Both the position numbers and the translations under genes were made by a program. A stretch of DNA of 46,537 nt, taken from a virus (taxonomy: Duplodnaviria > Heunggongvirae > Uroviricota > Caudoviricetes). Positions 35,204 to 45,328 of the stretch are shown here, in pieces. The DNA is taken from the IMG/VR virus record IMGVR_UViG_2563366953_000003; one strand, given 5' to 3'. Below the pieces are notes generated by a model. The model was not told where the DNA came from. It made no database searches and saw only the letters and a list, made by a program, of their open reading frames with translations. Positions within the stretch are counted from its first letter, which is position 1, and each line of letters begins with the position of its first letter.

Positions 35204-35475
35204 AGCGATTTCCTTTTAGTCGGATAATCACCCCCCTCAGGTGCAAATCTTTGGGTGGTGAGACATGCAGGGTTTGCACTACCGGCTAAAAGGACCCGGC
35301 GAGCCTTTCGACTCCCCTACACGCCCCACCATAAATCGCGGATGTGGCTGTGCGCACGACAATAAAAAAGACGCTGGCGCGTCGTTGTCGCCTTTTAGAT
35401 ATCCGGGGTGCAAATCCCGGCAACCGATTTTGCGGCTGCGCGGAAACTATAGCCCCGGGCTTTTTCTAAGTCAAT

Positions 35476-36339: not shown

Positions 36340-36740
36340 TATTTTTTGCCCTTCTTCCTGATGGGCTTCACGGTGTCGAGTAACAACCGGGTGCTGCCTG
36401 ATGCGCCTAAGCGGTAACCTGTTTTTTTATCGTAGTTCTCCCTTACACCTGCAGACCACGCAGTCGCTGTTTCACGGAGTTTTACTGTGCGCTCGCCAGT
36501 ATTTTTAATAACAACGCCGGTATGCGTTTTGGCAGTCCCTGATGTTATTTCTGCCGGGCGGATAACTGCTACGTGCTCAGGTTTTGCAATTACCACAACG
36601 TCAGTGTTTTTAGGTGGCGGGCAATATGTCGAGCGGGTACGTGCTCGCGCGGCTGCGTTCATGTGCCACAGAATTGAATCCAGGTAGTTTTTACCGTCGT
36701 CACTATAGTGCGCACTCGTGTGGTTAATTAATTGGGTCAT
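36339..36740 (-). CDS. Hypothetical protein downstream of the helicase
   Basis: 133-aa ORF with basic C-terminus. Confidence 0.4.
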   Translation of the reverse strand: MTQLINHTSAHYSDDGKNYLDSILWHMNAAARARTRSTYCPPPKNTDVVVIAKPEHVAVIRPAEITSGTAKTHTGVVIKNTGERTVKLRETATAWSAGVRENYDKKTGYRLGASGSTRLLLDTVKPIRKKGKK

Positions 36741-36778
36741 TGGTCTTTCCTCGGTTATTTCACGCTGGTCAGACGTGG

Positions 36779-39267: not shown

Positions 39268-39458
39268 CCGGCTTCATAGTCCGCATTGCTCAGCCCTTTG
39301 TCGCGCAACTCGACCTTCCTGGATTCATACTGCTCCCACACCGAAAGCGCGGCAGCCATACGCCCATCAAAAATAGGTTGGATCTCTGCAACATGTGCCG
39401 GGCGCCCATTCAGGTGCCAGCCGTTACGCCAGGTAATGCGGTCAATATGTCTTAACAT
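39234..39458 (-). CDS. Small hypothetical protein (overlaps O-like start; may be spurious)
   Basis: 74-aa ORF. Confidence 0.25.
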   Translation of the reverse strand: MLRHIDRITWRNGWHLNGRPAHVAEIQPIFDGRMAAALSVWEQYESRKVELRDKGLSNADYEAGCRQIAEALEI

Positions 39459-39497
39459 CGGTCTTTCCTCGGTATAAGTTAAACGCTGGTCAGGCGC

Positions 39498-39974
39498 TCA
39501 TGCATGGTGGCCTTGCGCAGTGCTTATCACTGCCCCTCGCGTCGCTACCAGCGCCGCTATTGCTTCGTCAATTTCCTGAATAGTTATCTCTGGCGCGAAG
39601 TGGAGATGTACAGCGTTAATCGCTTCCACCCCTTCTTTTGCCGCCAGCGTTGCCAGCAAAACGGGATCGCCCGGCGACTCCAGACGCGCCCGCCGTTCTG
39701 CGGGTAGCACGGCTTTCATCACACTGGCCAGCACCTGAGTTTTTCGGCGCGCCGCCGTTGTCTCGCCACGTAACCAGCGAAAGATTTTCTGCCGATTGTT
39801 GTTGATGGCTCTCCAGTCCACATTGCCGTCCGCGTCCTCAAATTCATGTAGTCTCAACTCATCATTGCGTCCCTGACTGAACCAGGCCCGGCAGATTTCA
39901 ATCGTGACGAGTTCCTGCCCTGCCCTTGCCGCCCAGGTCAAAATCTCTTTTTGTAATTCCTCTGGGTTTTCCAT
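39498..39974 (-). CDS. Putative CII-like regulator (YdaT-like)
   Basis: 158 aa immediately downstream of the Cro-like gene; WRAINNNRQKIFRWLRGETTAARRK resembles my recollection of Rac YdaT. Low certainty. Confidence 0.4.
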   Translation of the reverse strand: MENPEELQKEILTWAARAGQELVTIEICRAWFSQGRNDELRLHEFEDADGNVDWRAINNNRQKIFRWLRGETTAARRKTQVLASVMKAVLPAERRARLESPGDPVLLATLAAKEGVEAINAVHLHFAPEITIQEIDEAIAALVATRGAVISTAQGHHA

Positions 39975-40032: not shown

Positions 40033-40263
40033 TTAAGCTGCTTCCGTTTTAGGCAAGCTGTCATCTGGGTTTGGGTAAAGATCCGGTCTAAGATCATGAG
40101 GGGTCACGCGCCATTCAAGAGCTTCAGATGTGCGCAAAACCTCTTCACCGGGAACCCGTCCTTTGAACCAGAGGCTCACAGTTTGTGGTTTTTTCCCTAA
40201 TCGCCGACCTAACTCGGATTGACTCATTACGGAAAGAATTTTGTCTTGCAGTTGTTTATCCAT
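40033..40263 (-). CDS. Cro-like HTH regulator (YdaS-like)
   Basis: 76 aa from the ATG at 40263 with AAGGAG RBS; HTH-like segment SQSELGRRLGKKPQTVSLW; divergent from the repressor gene. Confidence 0.6.
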   Translation of the reverse strand: MDKQLQDKILSVMSQSELGRRLGKKPQTVSLWFKGRVPGEEVLRTSEALEWRVTPHDLRPDLYPNPDDSLPKTEAA

Positions 40264-40284
40264 ATGGACTCCTTGTGTCCGCGC

Positions 40285-40330
40285 CATCATTACAAATCAT
40301 AACTGTAATTACAAATTATATTTGCAATGC
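40285..40330. promoter_or_regulatory. OR-like operator region between the cro-like and cI-like genes
   Basis: Dyads ATTACA-N9-TGTAAT (about 40289-40309) and TACAAAT-N3-ATTTGCA (about 40310-40326); half-site TTACAA/TTGTAA. Confidence 0.45.
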
Positions 40331-40361: not shown

Positions 40362-40775
40362 ATGAACACAAAAACGAAAAACATGGCTTTTGCTAGCCGA
40401 CTACAACGGATTCTAAAAGACTTAGGCTGGTCTCAATCTGAGTTAGCTCGCCATATTGGGGTTACAGCTCAATCAGTTCAGGCATGGTGTAATGGGGTAA
40501 CTCCAAGAAAAGATAAATTAGACAAGCTAGCAAAAGTGACCGGATACCCTGTTCATTTTTTCTTCATGAATGAAGGAGAATATTTGGATGAATCCACGCT
40601 ACACCCCGGTAATTACAATCAAGAACTAACCCCGCAAGAACAGGCTCTACTGCAACTATTCAGAGGACTGCCTGAGAGCGAAAAAAATAAACTAATCAAT
40701 GAGCTAAAAGAAAAAAGAGAGCACTTCGATCTACTGCTAAAAGAACTACTTGAAGCCAAAAACCAGACAAAATAG
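40362..40775 (+). CDS. CI-like repressor (XRE-family HTH)
   Basis: HTH segment WSQSELARHIGVTAQSVQAW; start set at the first ATG (40362), whereas the track ORF begins with a TTG at 40347. Confidence 0.7.
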   Translation: MNTKTKNMAFASRLQRILKDLGWSQSELARHIGVTAQSVQAWCNGVTPRKDKLDKLAKVTGYPVHFFFMNEGEYLDESTLHPGNYNQELTPQEQALLQLFRGLPESEKNKLINELKEKREHFDLLLKELLEAKNQTK

Positions 40776-40869: not shown

Positions 40870-40925
40870 TACAAATTATTTTTTTAAAAACACATTGACC
40901 ATTACAAATACAAATTGTAAAGTCA
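40870..40925 (+). promoter_or_regulatory. pL-like promoter with OL-like operator
   Basis: TTGACC (about 40895-40900), 17-bp spacer, TAAAGT; the spacer contains the dyad TTACAA-N7-TTGTAA (about 40902-40920), the same half-sites as OR. Confidence 0.4.
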
Positions 40926-41771
40926 CTTTCATCAACAACGCTTACCCAGCGGCAGTTGTTCAGAAACAAGTTCTGACAGCCGGAAAGACGGCACCAAATT
41001 TTGCGCGTCGGCGCCAACACGGTGACAGAGGGAAAGACTTCACCGGCATATGGCACATGTGTCGAAGCGGTCTGGATGGAAGCGGAGCCTTAACGCGTTG
41101 TCTCCATAGCAGGTAGCCGGAATGTGCAAGCCACAGCCAGGTATGAGCGATTGATTCACCATCAAGGCGATACGGTGTGACCACCAGGGAAGAGTCCTGG
41201 CTACAACACGAGAGCGCACTTCATCGACTCAACTTTGAGCTTTGTCGTTAAATTTTGAAATGGCGGAGTGCGCTCCCGGTTGTGGTGAACAGGTGTTTAA
41301 CGGGAACTCCCTGCCCGTTACCCGGTTCGATTCCGGGCGCCCATCATCAATTTGCTGTGTTTAGTCTTTGCCCAGTCCGCACGATGGGCCATTTTTTCAC
41401 ACAGCCAGGTTTTATCGCTGCGCCTGAGTCCCCAACAGGAGAGGCCAAACCCGCAGCGTGAAACCAGGGAAAGACCGGAGGAAGTACCACGCCTGACCAG
41501 CGTTGACCATGAGCCTGACCAGCTCAAAACAGGAAAGACCAGCCCTGTACGGTCGTGATGGAAACATGACGACGCCGGAAACGTAACCGGCACCCTTTAG
41601 ATAGCAAAAGACCCGCACAAGGCGGGCCAGTTACCCCGAACGGCGACCAAACCATTCGGATTTATCACAAGTGACCAAACTTGTGATGAGGAAAGACCAA
41701 CGACACTGACGCTATGGAAGCTGATCAATATTCGCTGATCGGTTCTGAGTATACATCACCAAGGAGTCGCT

Positions 41772-42092
41772 ATGGAAGCGCGCACCATCCCAGTAACACT
41801 CTTTATTCATTATGCAACTTCAACTTTCAGCCATGAAAAGCTGTTTATTGCGACAGTTGATATGTCAAAAAATTTTCCAGACAGGTACATCCTTCTGGAA
41901 AGCCGCGAAATTGAAATTACCGTCAACCAGCCCCAGCCAATCGACATCATCGGTTTACAGGTTGAGCAGCTGCGTGAGCAAAAACAGAATACAGCCGCCG
42001 ACGCCCAACAGCGTATTGCTGCTATCGATGACAAAATCCACCAGTTACTTTGCATCGAATACACGCCAGATACTGATGAAATCCCCTACTAA
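41772..42092 (+). CDS. Hypothetical early protein
   Basis: 106-aa ORF with AAGGAG RBS; first gene after the long leader. Confidence 0.4.
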   Translation: MEARTIPVTLFIHYATSTFSHEKLFIATVDMSKNFPDRYILLESREIEITVNQPQPIDIIGLQVEQLREQKQNTAADAQQRIAAIDDKIHQLLCIEYTPDTDEIPY

Positions 42093-42122
42093 AGACCACT
42101 GACCTGTAATGAGGAAAGACCA

Positions 42123-44336
42123 ATGACCATTTTTAACGGCTTGTTAGAAGCGAAAAAAGGCGCGCTCAAAAACGGCGCGATCCCGGCGCTGGCCATCGCC
42201 ATCGACGCCCCTAACAAAAAAGTTGCCGAGAACATCATCATCGGCAAATTGTGGGAAGCCTACCCTGACCACGGCGACAACTATTTCAAACCTAAAATCT
42301 GGGAAGATGCCCTGGGCCAACCGCGCCCAGGCGTTGGTGAGTTTGATGAGACGTTCGCCACAGAACACAGTTTTGATGGCGAAAAATGGGTAGTTAACAC
42401 CACCGTTGTAGATAGCGGTTCAGCAGATATCGCACAGGTTAACGACCTGATGAAACTGCCGGCTCGTGAACGATTCGCCGCCGTTCTGCTGTTCAGCCAC
42501 GACGCCAACGAAGTCGACAGTGAATTGCTTGCGCAGACGCGTGAATACCTGGAGATGCTCGACAACAGTGATACTGACAGTGAGGATGAGGTTGACGCGT
42601 TTAACCGCATCGTTCTTGATGCCATGGTGGCGTGTAAGCCCATCGAGTACATGCATATTGCTGGATTGAATAATCTGGTACATGCAATTTTGGCAAGTTG
42701 CGATACCCAGGAACAAAACCCGACCAGTTGGACTATCTCCAAATTTATAAAAAAATGGGTAGAGAATCCCGGTAAACGCGATGAAATGCTGCCGGAGGTA
42801 AAACCGTCCGCACGTCCTTACAAACAGACTCACGCTACACTGGATCGTGAAATTGCCTGCGCTCTGTTACCCGTTGGCCCGGAAAAAATCTCCCCCAGCG
42901 TCCTGAAAGCGGCAGACGAAATAATCAGCCAGGATCGGGAGGATTTTAAACGCTGGTCAATGGCCTTGCGCACAACGGATCAGATCCTTGCCTATGACCG
43001 CGCATCAGTATTCGGTGTTATTCAGAGCGCCCCCGCAAAAGACACGTACCACTTCCCGCAATCCCTGCGCAGTCACATCGACAACTGGCTGCAAGCTAAC
43101 GGGCAGCGTGATGCAAATGCTGTTGAAGAGAAGTCAAAGGAAGCAGCACCAAAGGATGATGTAAAAGTCACCAACCACGGCGGCGGGCGATTCTCAATTG
43201 ATGGGATGATGTCAGAAACACCCTCAAATCAGGGTGAAAAAAGCGAAGCTGCAAATGCTGGAGAACGTAGTTTGCAGCAGTTGCGTGAGCAGTTTATCAC
43301 GCCTCGCCATGTGTATGACGTACCTGAAAATAACGCCGTCTCACAGAGGGAACCTGCAGCTATTACCCCGGCAGAAGAGACTCCTCCACAAGAAAAACTT
43401 AGCGAGCAGGTAAAGGATCTGGTGCAGAACGTTGACGCGCTGGTTGAGCCGCCCCATGCCGAGGAAAAAACTGCATCAATTCGCATGGAGCATTATCTGT
43501 CAGCAATGAATGATGACCAGAGCAAAGCAAATTTGGCTATCTGGAATCGCGTTCAGCGGACCGATCCTGCGTATGTCACACATAATGATTACGGTGCAGG
43601 ACTGCACTCCATACGCGCACAATATATTTTGATGCGTGCGACTGAAGTGCTGGGAATGGAAGGCATTGGTTGGGGAGTTGAAATCAAGGAGGAGCGAGTG
43701 GATCGCGGTGTGCCATTACTTGAACCTATACAGGATCAGACAGGGAAAATTATTGGACAAAAACCTGTCAGGGATGCTGACGGTTCCCTGTTCTGCCTGT
43801 CAGTACACACCATCCGGATAGATCTCTGGTACATCTGGAACGGAGTGAAAGGATTTATTCCGTCATATGGCCACACGGATTACATATCAAAAAATAACAA
43901 AGGGGCACTGGTAATGGAAAAAGAGACCTCCAAAAAGTCTCTTACTGATGCCACCGTCAAAGCACTATCTCATCTGGGATTTGCGGCAGATGTTTATATG
44001 GATATGCATAACGATAGTGCCTACACCGCCGAGCTGAATACAGAATACAGTATTAAGAAGGCAAGCGAGAAAGCAGAGGATGCTACCCGACTGCGTGAAG
44101 AACTGGATGAACGACTCTCAGGTGTTGCCAAAACACTGGCTGCAGCCGTAACCCCCAATGAAGTTAATAAAGTCTATGGCCTTATTGCGCGGGAAGTAGA
44201 AGTTCACCGCAAGGCCGCAGAATCCAAAGGTGATAAGGAGTATTCAACTTATCTTGGTTCGCGCCTGCGCCGTTTGAATGAAATCAAAACCGAACGCCTC
44301 ACCGCCCTCACCGCAGCACAGGAGCAAACAGCATGA
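42123..44336 (+). CDS. Large early protein; C-terminal region resembles an Erf/Rad52-type single-strand annealing domain (tentative)
   Basis: 737 aa; acidic and low-complexity central linker; C-terminal GAGLHSIRAQYILMRATEVLG...KKSLTDATVKALSHLGFAADVYMD loosely parallels P22 Erf motifs. The N-terminal roughly 400 aa are unassigned. Confidence 0.35.
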   Translation: MTIFNGLLEAKKGALKNGAIPALAIAIDAPNKKVAENIIIGKLWEAYPDHGDNYFKPKIWEDALGQPRPGVGEFDETFATEHSFDGEKWVVNTTVVDSGSADIAQVNDLMKLPARERFAAVLLFSHDANEVDSELLAQTREYLEMLDNSDTDSEDEVDAFNRIVLDAMVACKPIEYMHIAGLNNLVHAILASCDTQEQNPTSWTISKFIKKWVENPGKRDEMLPEVKPSARPYKQTHATLDREIACALLPVGPEKISPSVLKAADEIISQDREDFKRWSMALRTTDQILAYDRASVFGVIQSAPAKDTYHFPQSLRSHIDNWLQANGQRDANAVEEKSKEAAPKDDVKVTNHGGGRFSIDGMMSETPSNQGEKSEAANAGERSLQQLREQFITPRHVYDVPENNAVSQREPAAITPAEETPPQEKLSEQVKDLVQNVDALVEPPHAEEKTASIRMEHYLSAMNDDQSKANLAIWNRVQRTDPAYVTHNDYGAGLHSIRAQYILMRATEVLGMEGIGWGVEIKEERVDRGVPLLEPIQDQTGKIIGQKPVRDADGSLFCLSVHTIRIDLWYIWNGVKGFIPSYGHTDYISKNNKGALVMEKETSKKSLTDATVKALSHLGFAADVYMDMHNDSAYTAELNTEYSIKKASEKAEDATRLREELDERLSGVAKTLAAAVTPNEVNKVYGLIAREVEVHRKAAESKGDKEYSTYLGSRLRRLNEIKTERLTALTAAQEQTA

Positions 44337-45103: not shown

Positions 45104-45328
45104 TTGCGATTCACCAGACCCAGGAGGATCACAATGCTGCGATGGCAACCGGGAGCAACTCTGCTCTCCGCATTTGATATCAAAATTGGCCGACTGTCGG
45201 CCAGCGTCAGGAAACAGGCTTTGACCGAGTCTGATATTGCCCGTGCCTGCCATGTGGCAGATGACGCAATAAGCTACATAATGAGGAAGGACCATGAACG
45301 ATCTGTTAAACGACGAGGAACTGGTTGA
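45104..45328 (+). CDS. Small hypothetical protein (start uncertain)
   Basis: 74-aa ORF overlapping the excisionase-like start. Confidence 0.25.
   Translation: MRFTRPRRITMLRWQPGATLLSAFDIKIGRLSASVRKQALTESDIARACHVADDAISYIMRKDHERSVKRRGTG

Follow-up and report, generated by a model that had tools for sequence, protein, structure and literature searches.

The window analysed here, the 46,537-nucleotide (nt) virus record IMGVR_UViG_2563366953_000003, is a lambdoid-type prophage of Escherichia coli, in which a leader of roughly 850 nt without a supported open reading frame (ORF) separates the pL-like promoter from the first supported gene of the early-left operon at 41772. An earlier note on this DNA had compared four hairpins in the leader to the cis-acting antitermination RNAs of the HK022 put type and had offered a small RNA (sRNA) locus as the alternative. 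Our analysis favours the alternative. With a probability of about 0.6 the leader is a mosaic non-coding RNA locus and not a put-type antiterminator. It carries a plus-strand module that resembles the 3' end of the host sRNA RprA and ends in a terminator, and, on the minus strand, a predicted antisense RNA of three hairpins that also ends in a terminator. In front of these lie a structured RNA element, called module A here, and what is left of a tRNA-like gene. This reading is based on conservation, covariation, strand assignment, terminators and complementarity, which were observed directly in the sequences compared.

RESULTS

A predicted antisense sRNA on the minus strand of the leader

Leader variants were collected with two exact-match anchors, which yielded 13 distinct sequences of the element between 41603 and about 41741. 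We predict that this stretch encodes a minus-strand antisense sRNA, whose structure and terminator are seen in the alignment and whose promoter and 5' end are putative. Read from 5' to 3', the antisense RNA would consist of a variable 5' end, the single strand UGGUCUUUCCU (positions 41688-41700 of the plus strand), the hairpins H2' (41664-41687) and H1' (41635-41660) and the terminator. In H2, which is the palindrome of the earlier note, eight of the nine pairs show compensatory changes around the constant loop GACCAA, and in H1 AA/UU is swapped for GG/CC. Over the 13 variants the minus strand forms 24 pairs with 99.3% of the cells paired, and ten pairs are changed on both sides. The observed paired fraction, covariation score and number of compensatory cells were reached in none of 500 shuffles, the number of pairs changed on both sides in five of 500. 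In slid controls pairing amounted to 36-50%.

The strand can be read from the imperfect pairs. Twenty cells that are G.U pairs on the minus strand are A.C mismatches on the plus strand, every plus-strand mismatch corresponds to a minus-strand G.U pair, and one U.G pair of H1 is invariant in 13 of 13 sequences. Furthermore, the minus strand folds with -62.1 kcal/mol (z -7.4) as compared to -41.9 kcal/mol (z -4.1) for the plus strand. Because of this asymmetry between G.U and A.C and the better fold of the minus strand, the CCCGC hairpin and the palindrome were assigned to the minus strand.

Among genome contigs the antisense element was detected in only three species representatives. The antisense RNA belongs to no Rfam family, apart from a weak IsrK-like architecture at 14 bits, and a literature search for the conserved strings found nothing. 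As a short, structured, terminator-ended RNA opposite to an early operon it resembles the cis-antisense RNAs that phages encode close to their immunity region (OOP of lambda, sar of P22) and the prophage sRNAs IsrK and DicF. Both of its hairpin loops repeat UUGGUC and thereby show a UUGG of the YUNR type, a sequence common in the recognition loops of antisense RNAs. It differs from the four known RNAs in that there is no sequence homology and in that its single strand matches a multi-copy ribosome binding site (RBS) linker present in both early operons.

Complementarity to a shared ribosome binding site of early genes

UGGUCUUUCCU is the only invariant single strand of the antisense RNA. It is the complement of AGGAAAGACCA and is likewise complementary to the RBS GAGGAAAGACCA shared by early genes. 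The core of this motif, GGAAAGAC, is found eight times in the window as compared to 1.3 expected occurrences (about sixfold). All copies fall within the early region, each in the sense orientation of its operon. Three of the eight are Shine-Dalgarno sequences of real genes (GAGGAAAGACCAAUG at 42123 and, on the minus strand, at 36740, GAGGAAAGACCGAUG at 39458 on the minus strand); the other five are located in the leader without a start codon. In all related phages GAGGAAAGACCA(A)TG stands before the gene that follows the 106-amino-acid (aa) gene at 41772, and at least four early genes across both early operons are preceded by GAGGAAAGACCA(A)UG.

When the antisense RNA was scanned against the whole window for duplex formation (background -9.4 +/- 3.5 kcal/mol), the RBS of the exonuclease-family gene emerged as the best predicted trans target (Table 1), followed by the sites at 36740 on the minus strand (-31.1 kcal/mol) and at 45294, in front of the excisionase (xis)-like gene, and 39458 on the minus strand (-27.3 kcal/mol each). 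The top four trans duplexes are thus early-gene RBSs; three further sites, which are no obvious RBSs, reach similar values of -26 to -28 kcal/mol. The match to the multi-copy RBS linker suggests a small trans regulon of the predicted RNA besides its action in cis.

A module resembling the 3' end of RprA

Nucleotides 41352-41401 are 84% identical (E 2e-5) to the annotated 3' end of the chromosomal rprA gene, which is present in essentially all E. coli genomes (5424 of them gave a match), and the similarity is confined to the last 50 nt or so of rprA. The Rfam model for RprA, RF00034, aligns to 41289-41399 with 37.4 bits (E 0.017) against a gathering score of 70, and the 3' half of this alignment almost equals the consensus. 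The corresponding segment of the 'Stenotrophomonas' phage BUCT708, the only diverged full-length relative of the leader in the phage collection, reaches 50.2 bits against the same gathering score.

Host and phage RNA share the single strand UUGCUGUGU(G/U)UAGUCUUUGCCC, followed by a Rho-independent terminator. BUCT708 retains UUGCUGUGUGUAGUCUU, but the terminator stem behind it differs, with compensating changes. Other phages likewise keep the 17-nt single strand and diverge in their terminator stems; in 25 of 134 loci that contain module A, GCUGUGUGUAGUCUU(G/U)G lies downstream of it, with at least five different terminator hairpins. In this comparison, an invariant single strand joined to a replaceable terminator is the signature of a predicted base-pairing sRNA. 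Both the RprA-like module and the antisense RNA display the layout of Hfq-type sRNAs, that is, a conserved seed and then a Rho-independent terminator with a variable stem.

The last 47 nt of RprA, known as RprAproc, occur beside the full-length RNA and have an activity of their own, e.g. on narP (PMC9262595). The pairing region of RprA that has been mapped and that is used on narP and hdeD comprises nt 30-70 (PMC9262595, PMC5861431). In the duplex scan of the window the RprA-like seed found no strong in-phage target except its own locus. The central region of host RprA also pairs with rpoS and csgD, and the host promoter is driven by Rcs. The phage copy corresponds to RprA in its last 50 nt, with single strand and terminator, and differs from it in the absence of the 5' and central segments used for pairing with rpoS, csgD, hdeD and narP, in its sub-threshold scores of 37-50 bits and in its position behind a tRNA-like gene. 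Lacking its own promoter, it would rely on pL and on processing, so that a repressor-controlled phage promoter would drive it. The RprA-like terminator was called by the terminator scan and lies between pL and the early-left genes. Some read-through is therefore needed for expression of these genes.

Stable small RNAs are known from phage tRNA clusters, and tRNA 3' external transcribed spacers such as 3'ETS-leuZ give rise to small RNAs. The arrangement in the leader, a terminator-ended small RNA directly behind a tRNA-like gene, is similar, and tRNA-processing enzymes would release the RNA. In contrast to 3'ETS-leuZ, however, the phage tRNA is degenerate or deleted, and its trailer mimics a host sRNA and not a known sponge. 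Identity of the RprA-like RNA with PasB, an sRNA of enteropathogenic E. coli, was considered and rejected, as PasB belongs to another prophage and the sequence of its probe bears no relation to the RprA-like RNA.

As a separate observation, GCCCATC at 41339-41345, on the 3' border of the tRNA-like remnant, is perfectly complementary to the 3' arm of the terminator, GATGGGC at 41383-41389, which we take to be the same arm sequence as in host rprA. The alternative long-range stem would enclose the RprA-like seed. It could be a modulator of termination or of access to the seed, or else a recombination scar.

Module A, a conserved structured RNA of unrelated phages

The most conserved structured element of the leader, module A at 41044-41207, had been missed in the earlier note. 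Its invariant blocks are CGGCRTATGGCACATGYGYCG, AGCGGTCYGG, GGTAGCCGGAATGTGCAAG, TCACCATCNNGGCGRTACGGTGTGAC and the hairpin CCAGG-GAAGAGT-CCTGG. The element is about 74% identical to unannotated intergenic DNA of unrelated phages and phage-plasmids. Carriers of the Uetakevirus type (SPN1S, Tyrion, PAT1, BUCT554 and a prophage of E. coli E2348/69) have it between the genes for the large terminase subunit and the portal protein. It is also present in the P1-like phage-plasmids D6 and SJ46, in Klebsiella phage SopranoGao and in Klebsiella plasmids. The locus set was gathered by an exact match to the 19-mer GGTAGCCGGAATGTGCAAG, which occurs in at least 120 IMG/VR contigs that form 45 clusters below 88% identity.

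RNAalifold analysis of 14 module A sequences gave 35 pairs, of which eight show compensatory changes. Covariation of the main helices persists in the 45 clusters, and these helices contain near-invariant U.G pairs, which places the predicted RNA on the plus strand; its single-stranded joining regions are highly invariant. In Rfam 15, a library that included the YrlA, tmRNA and tRNA models, no match to module A was obtained in the window (E <= 10) or in nine related loci (E <= 1), and identification as a tmRNA, Y RNA, riboswitch or ribozyme was ruled out since no model matched. Module A is, on these comparative grounds, a predicted and so far unannotated RNA family that spans Uetakevirus-type, P1-like, Lastavirus and lambdoid phages.

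Its neighbourhood is that of tRNA genes. In 28 of the 134 loci a tRNA-Arg(UCU) gene starts about 160-230 nt after the 19-mer, and in 18 of the 134 a tRNA-Met(CAU) gene lies 170 nt before it. The cassette layout of the leader recurs beside tRNA genes in Uetakevirus-type and P1-like loci. Judging from these nearby tRNA genes and from the spacer hairpins that flank it (see below), module A appears to behave like a gene in a phage tRNA-type array. Within 700 nt after module A, a terminator-like hairpin on the same strand was found in 86 of 119 distinct contexts as compared to 37 of 119 for the antisense control. A co-oriented ORF follows this terminator in 75 of the 86, according to a mechanical ORF count without a specificity control.

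As a side observation, the P1-like phage-plasmid D6 (locus L003, 1457-1577) and the plasmid pUTAK-19-1 (locus L012, 898-1018) contain STnc100-like matches of about 39 bits, below the threshold of 47, which share the non-coding array with module A and several tRNA genes. P1-like phage-plasmids thus seem to hold a cluster of small-RNA genes at the module A array.

A tRNA-like remnant and a spacer hairpin behind module A

The two adjacent hairpins at 41298-41337 are, as far as can be judged from comparison, a decaying tRNA-like gene and not a conserved leader structure. CCCGG-TTCGATT-CCGGG corresponds to a T-arm (sequence GGTTCGATTCC), and the preceding hairpin stands at the position of a long variable arm. 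T-arm, variable-arm-like hairpin and 5' acceptor strand are the tRNA parts that survive, short of a full cloverleaf. The tRNA-Sec model aligns to 41265-41345 with 19.3 bits against a gathering score of 47, and ARAGORN called no tRNA in the leader. The whole stretch is missing from BUCT708, and deletion derivatives of the pseudo-tRNA are present in other phage loci. The acceptor strand GTTGTGG recurs in a 113-nt 'pseudogenic tRNA-Gly' annotated in the E. coli E2348/69 prophage. Our assignment follows from this shared acceptor strand, the sub-threshold tRNA-Sec match, the deletion derivatives and the loss in BUCT708.

In the pseudogenic tRNA-Gly of E2348/69 (locus L006, 2730-2842) the acceptor, D and T arms are intact and the anticodon region contains a large insertion; the gene stands between module A on its 5' side and an RprA-like seed with terminator on its 3' side. 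It may be the intact form of the remnant in the window.

Between module A and the remnant lies spacer hairpin B. Copies of it flank module A and precede tRNA or tRNA-like genes in other phages; in E2348/69 and other Uetakevirus-type loci they are found upstream of both module A and the pseudo-tRNA.

An Rfam scan, one of the checks named in the earlier note, was informative in the sense that it gave the sub-threshold matches to RprA and tRNA-Sec in the leader; the remainder were chance hits, and no match reached a gathering threshold.

Genomic setting and mosaic build of the leader

Table 1. Positions of the leader elements, their predicted targets and the neighbouring genes in the window
Feature	Position	Strand	Basis or remark
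Predicted antisense sRNA	about 41603-41741	-	covariation, fold, terminator; putative 5' end
Intrinsic terminator GGCCCGCCUUGUGCGGGUC-UUUU (H0, CCCGC hairpin; then UUUUGCU)	41628-41603	-	terminator scan
Candidate -10 element TATACT	41748-41753	-	putative; GAGTATA invariant in all homologous leaders listed, adjacent bases vary
RBS and start of exonuclease-family gene, AUGAGGAAAGACCAAUG	42108-42125	+	best predicted trans target; RNAduplex -32.9 kcal/mol
Other top duplex sites	36737-36752 (-), 39455-39471 (-), 45279-45296 (+)		RNAduplex
RprA-3'-end-like sRNA module	41350-41398	+	single-stranded UUGCUGUGUUUAGUCUUUGCCC, then terminator (stem 41370-41389, U-tract 41392-41397)
Module A, multi-helix structured RNA	41044-41207	+	conservation, compensatory changes
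Junction motif TGACAGNNGGAAAGAC, two copies (GGAAAGAC at 40982-40989 and 41031-41038)	40975-41043	+	adjoins module A on its 5' side; conserved in BUCT708
Spacer hairpin B, long-range stem GAGAGCGCACTTC/GGAGTGCGCTCCC around a small hairpin	41210-41277	+	sequence; conserved in BUCT708
tRNA-like gene remnant	41279-41346	+	5' acceptor GTTGTGG, variable-arm-like hairpin 41298-41320, T-arm 41321-41337
Hairpin TAACGGG/CCCGTTA	41298-41320	read on +	
Hairpin CCCGG-TTCGATT-CCGGG	41321-41337	read on +	
Non-coding spacer rich in junction motifs (CCTGACCAGCGTT..GGAAAGACC)	41399-41590	+	conserved in BUCT708
Hairpin CCCGC/GCGGG	41612-41626	read on +	
9-bp palindrome ATCACAAGT/ACTTGTGAT, loop GACCAA	41664-41687	read on +	
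Linker copies of about 40 nt	39458-39497 (-), 36740-36778 (-), 41492-41540 (+)		sequence
pL-like sigma-70 promoter TTGACC-17-TAAAGT	40895-40923	+	promoter scan; TACAAAT operator-like repeats on its flanks
cI-like repressor gene	40383-40775	+	just upstream of pL-like promoter
cro-like gene	40033-40290	-	divergent from pL-like promoter
cII-like gene	39498-39974	-	same direction as cro-like gene
First supported early-left gene, 106 aa	41772-42092	+	phrog_2479, full-length match, E 2e-50
Exonuclease-family gene, 737 aa	42123-44336	+	next after 106-aa gene
Excisionase (xis)-like gene, 71 aa	45294-45509	+	judged from read sequence alone

The earlier note was right that no credible ORF is present in the gap behind the pL-like promoter. 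Neither the six plus-strand ORFs tested in the leader nor the two longest minus-strand ORFs match a Pfam family, and in BUCT708, whose leader is 72% identical, the frames are disrupted by indels. Two further candidates, a 12-codon ORF with GTG start read from the sequence at about 41459-41497 and an ORF at 41714-41836 that overlaps the 106-aa gene, were rejected because their starts are not conserved. For the 106-aa protein neither a Pfam family nor an N family match was found, and its sequence, as read, is not arginine-rich. The exonuclease-family gene is followed by a Gam-like gene, the excisionase-like gene and the integrase gene. Among 5426 complete E. coli genomes, 448 carry the full leader, with an identity of about 98%.

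Leaders of related phages gain, lose or exchange parts. L147-type leaders have about 100 nt in place of 41340-41588. The break points of the leader variants lie at TGAC(A/C)NG...GGAAAGAC(C) units. A linker of about 40 nt, (C/T)CTGACCAGCGT(T/G)-N9-13-GAGGAAAGACC(A/G)ATG, is located at gene junctions of both early operons. It is also found at the mosaic break points and resembles a recombination boundary sequence, and junctions of the linker type are probably the route by which the cassette came into the leader. In L137-type leaders an insertion of 500 bp between pL and module A (L137, 1740-2160) carries one small ORF on the plus and one on the minus strand and looks like a moron or a toxin-antitoxin-like pair.

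A protospacer of a type I-E system of clustered regularly interspaced short palindromic repeats (CRISPR) lies at 41476-41507 (L200, 411-442) in non-coding DNA that includes the CCTGACCAGCGTT linker. A spacer of E. coli 702/18 is identical to the leader in 32 of 32 bases, with the protospacer adjacent motif ATG on the minus strand, and 23CRST013 gave the same BLAST match. E. coli CRISPR arrays have thus sampled this phage family.

The only Rfam matches at gathering threshold in the window are isrK (35364-35439, 76 bits) and a C4 antisense RNA (35251-35336, 74 bits), side by side on the minus strand. This arrangement is presumably that of the IsrK/anti-Q late-control locus of Gifsy-1.

DISCUSSION

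Transcription, processing, targets and physiological role of the leader RNAs are inferred, and the following sequence of events is proposed. Transcription from pL would enter an imported cassette resembling a tRNA operon, which consists of module A, the spacer hairpin, the decayed tRNA-like gene and the RprA-like trailer with its terminator. If transcripts terminate there and are processed at the tRNA-like and spacer structures, a stable module A RNA would be left, and the same processing would release a mimic of RprAproc of about 50 nt that may act on the host. Polymerases that read through would reach the genes for the 106-aa protein, the exonuclease-family protein, the Gam-like protein and xis/int. 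From the opposite strand, an antisense sRNA of about 140 nt would start just upstream of the start of the 106-aa gene and end at the terminator at 41628-41603. Its single strand UGGUCUUUCCU and the UUGGUC loops could pair with the GAGGAAAGACCA(A)UG linker and RBS of the early messages. Most likely, it would pair with the pL transcript in cis and with RBSs in trans and thereby lower or tune early translation or message stability; a possible purpose would be the silencing of leaky early expression in the lysogen.

Several points weigh against this reading, which as a whole is built on sequence comparison and predicted structure. The anchors used to collect the 13 antisense variants were exact, and invariance inside them, e.g. 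of the terminator helix, is partly there by construction. The antisense terminator has only four consecutive U residues. The candidate antisense promoter was not called by the default promoter scan. Its -10 element, TATACT, is good, but the -35 element (TCCATA) is weak and lies across the start codon of the 106-aa gene, and this overlap confounds the conservation of TATACT. The anti-RBS stretch may owe its conservation to another cause, as it is the complement of one leader copy of the RBS motif, and in BUCT708-type leaders this copy is followed by an ATG. As for the RprA-like module, L147-type relatives lack it, its terminator stem in the window contains a mismatch, and folding of the segment 41338-41402 yields a modest -15 kcal/mol as minimum free energy, with a z of -1.95. 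The mapped pairing region, nt 30-70, is absent from the phage copy, and the T-arm of the tRNA-like remnant aligns there with mismatched pairs. Finally, it is not known which targets processed RprA addresses directly (PMC9262595, PMC5861431).

The alternatives to a non-coding RNA locus begin with the put-type mechanism, in which stem-loops of the nascent pL transcript would bind RNA polymerase and render it resistant to terminators. The put RNAs are about 70 nt long with two stem-loops, one RNA following each early promoter (putL and putR), and putL begins at the transcript start (PMC9378689). The leader shares with them that it is a clearly structured early transcript of a lambdoid phage with a terminator to overcome, at 41370-41398, and that no N gene is recognisable. 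On this last point the earlier note stands, as neither the ORFs of the leader nor the genes next to it gave a match to an N family, although an N analogue might have gone undetected. Its four hairpins also exist, within 1-2 nt of where it had placed them. However, they begin 370-760 nt past the promoter, unlike putL (PMC9378689). The leader gave only chance matches of 12-20 nt when compared by blastn to the whole HK022 genome including the putL region. A second copy is missing: the intergenic region between cro and cII holds no related element, and in the window GACCAA-loop hairpins and the module A 19-mer are confined to the leader. Conservation in related phages, on which the earlier note had staked its proposal, fails for the hairpins at 41298-41337, which BUCT708 lacks, and holds with compensatory changes for those at 41612-41687, in a pattern that fits the minus strand. 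The latter, moreover, sit downstream of the very terminator they should overcome. With no HK022 similarity, no second copy, two hairpins unconserved and two on the other strand, the put reading is not supported by the comparison and was rejected; we consider it very unlikely. Hardly any weight, in turn, falls to a nut-like site, at which the hairpins and CCCUUUAGA (about 41593-41601), whose likeness to boxA is presumed, would serve an unrecognised N-type protein. CCCUUUAGA does lie 8 nt upstream of a hairpin with a 5-nt loop and just 5' of the first early-left gene, like nutL in lambda, but the helices fit the minus strand, no nut-like counterpart follows the cro-like gene, and the 106-aa neighbour has no N family match. 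A new processive antiterminator or leader RNA that acts in cis has also to be considered for module A itself, through which polymerase would pass the tRNA-like structures and the RprA-like terminator. Its promoter-proximal position, its highly invariant joining regions, the excess of same-strand terminators behind it and the protein genes located directly behind such terminators in the window and in E2348/69 would fit. The terminator pattern, however, is equally expected if the terminator just closes a non-coding RNA unit, the ORFs in 75 contexts come from a test that lacks a specificity control, the flanking spacer hairpins are those of a tRNA array, module A is present as a single copy in the window, and there is no similarity to put or to Rfam antiterminators. 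We regard this as unlikely.

Two further explanations deny the leader, or part of it, a role as RNA. It could be debris of an imported tRNA or moron cassette with vestigial junctions, uniform by recent descent and functionless. The tRNA-like part is clearly degenerate, leader variants gain or lose modules, and five RBS-like motifs have no ORF behind them, all of which speaks for decay. Against it, compensatory substitutions have preserved the helices of both module A and the antisense RNA in diverged lineages, the RprA-like seed stayed invariant while the terminator stem was replaced at least five times, and module A is kept in unrelated phage backbones; decay of the whole leader is in our view distinctly improbable. 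The RprA-like segment alone might stem from an attachment site, as a leftover copy of the 3' end of host rprA, since phages often carry the 3' end of an RNA gene used for integration and the similarity is limited to the 3' 50 nt. Yet the segment is about 4 kb away from the integrase gene and inside the early operon, it lies between terminase and portal genes in Uetakevirus-type phages, and its stems differ from rprA while the single strand is conserved, the opposite of an attachment core. This origin is scarcely credible.

We therefore return to the mosaic non-coding RNA locus. Two of its parts would be known kinds in variant form, namely a phage-borne sRNA mimic and an antisense RNA directed against an RBS, and module A would be an RNA family without a known kind. 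A more far-reaching version, in which module A is a widespread phage RNA class with a function of its own, in the boldest form an RNA-only processive antiterminator or leader that would save the antitermination idea of the earlier note by way of another element, combined with the RprAproc mimic and the anti-RBS antisense RNA, is an outside chance, though one that deserves mention.

The prophage is common in clinical E. coli, with the leader in about 8% of the complete genomes, those of sequence type 131 (ST131) among them. If the reading proposed here is true, the phage copy of the active RprA 3' fragment would be a clear case in which the business end of a host regulator has been borrowed, and it would help in the search for the targets that processed RprA addresses directly. 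Likewise, an antisense RNA against the shared RBS linker would mean that the exchangeable cassettes of mosaic phages can be placed under a single RNA switch.

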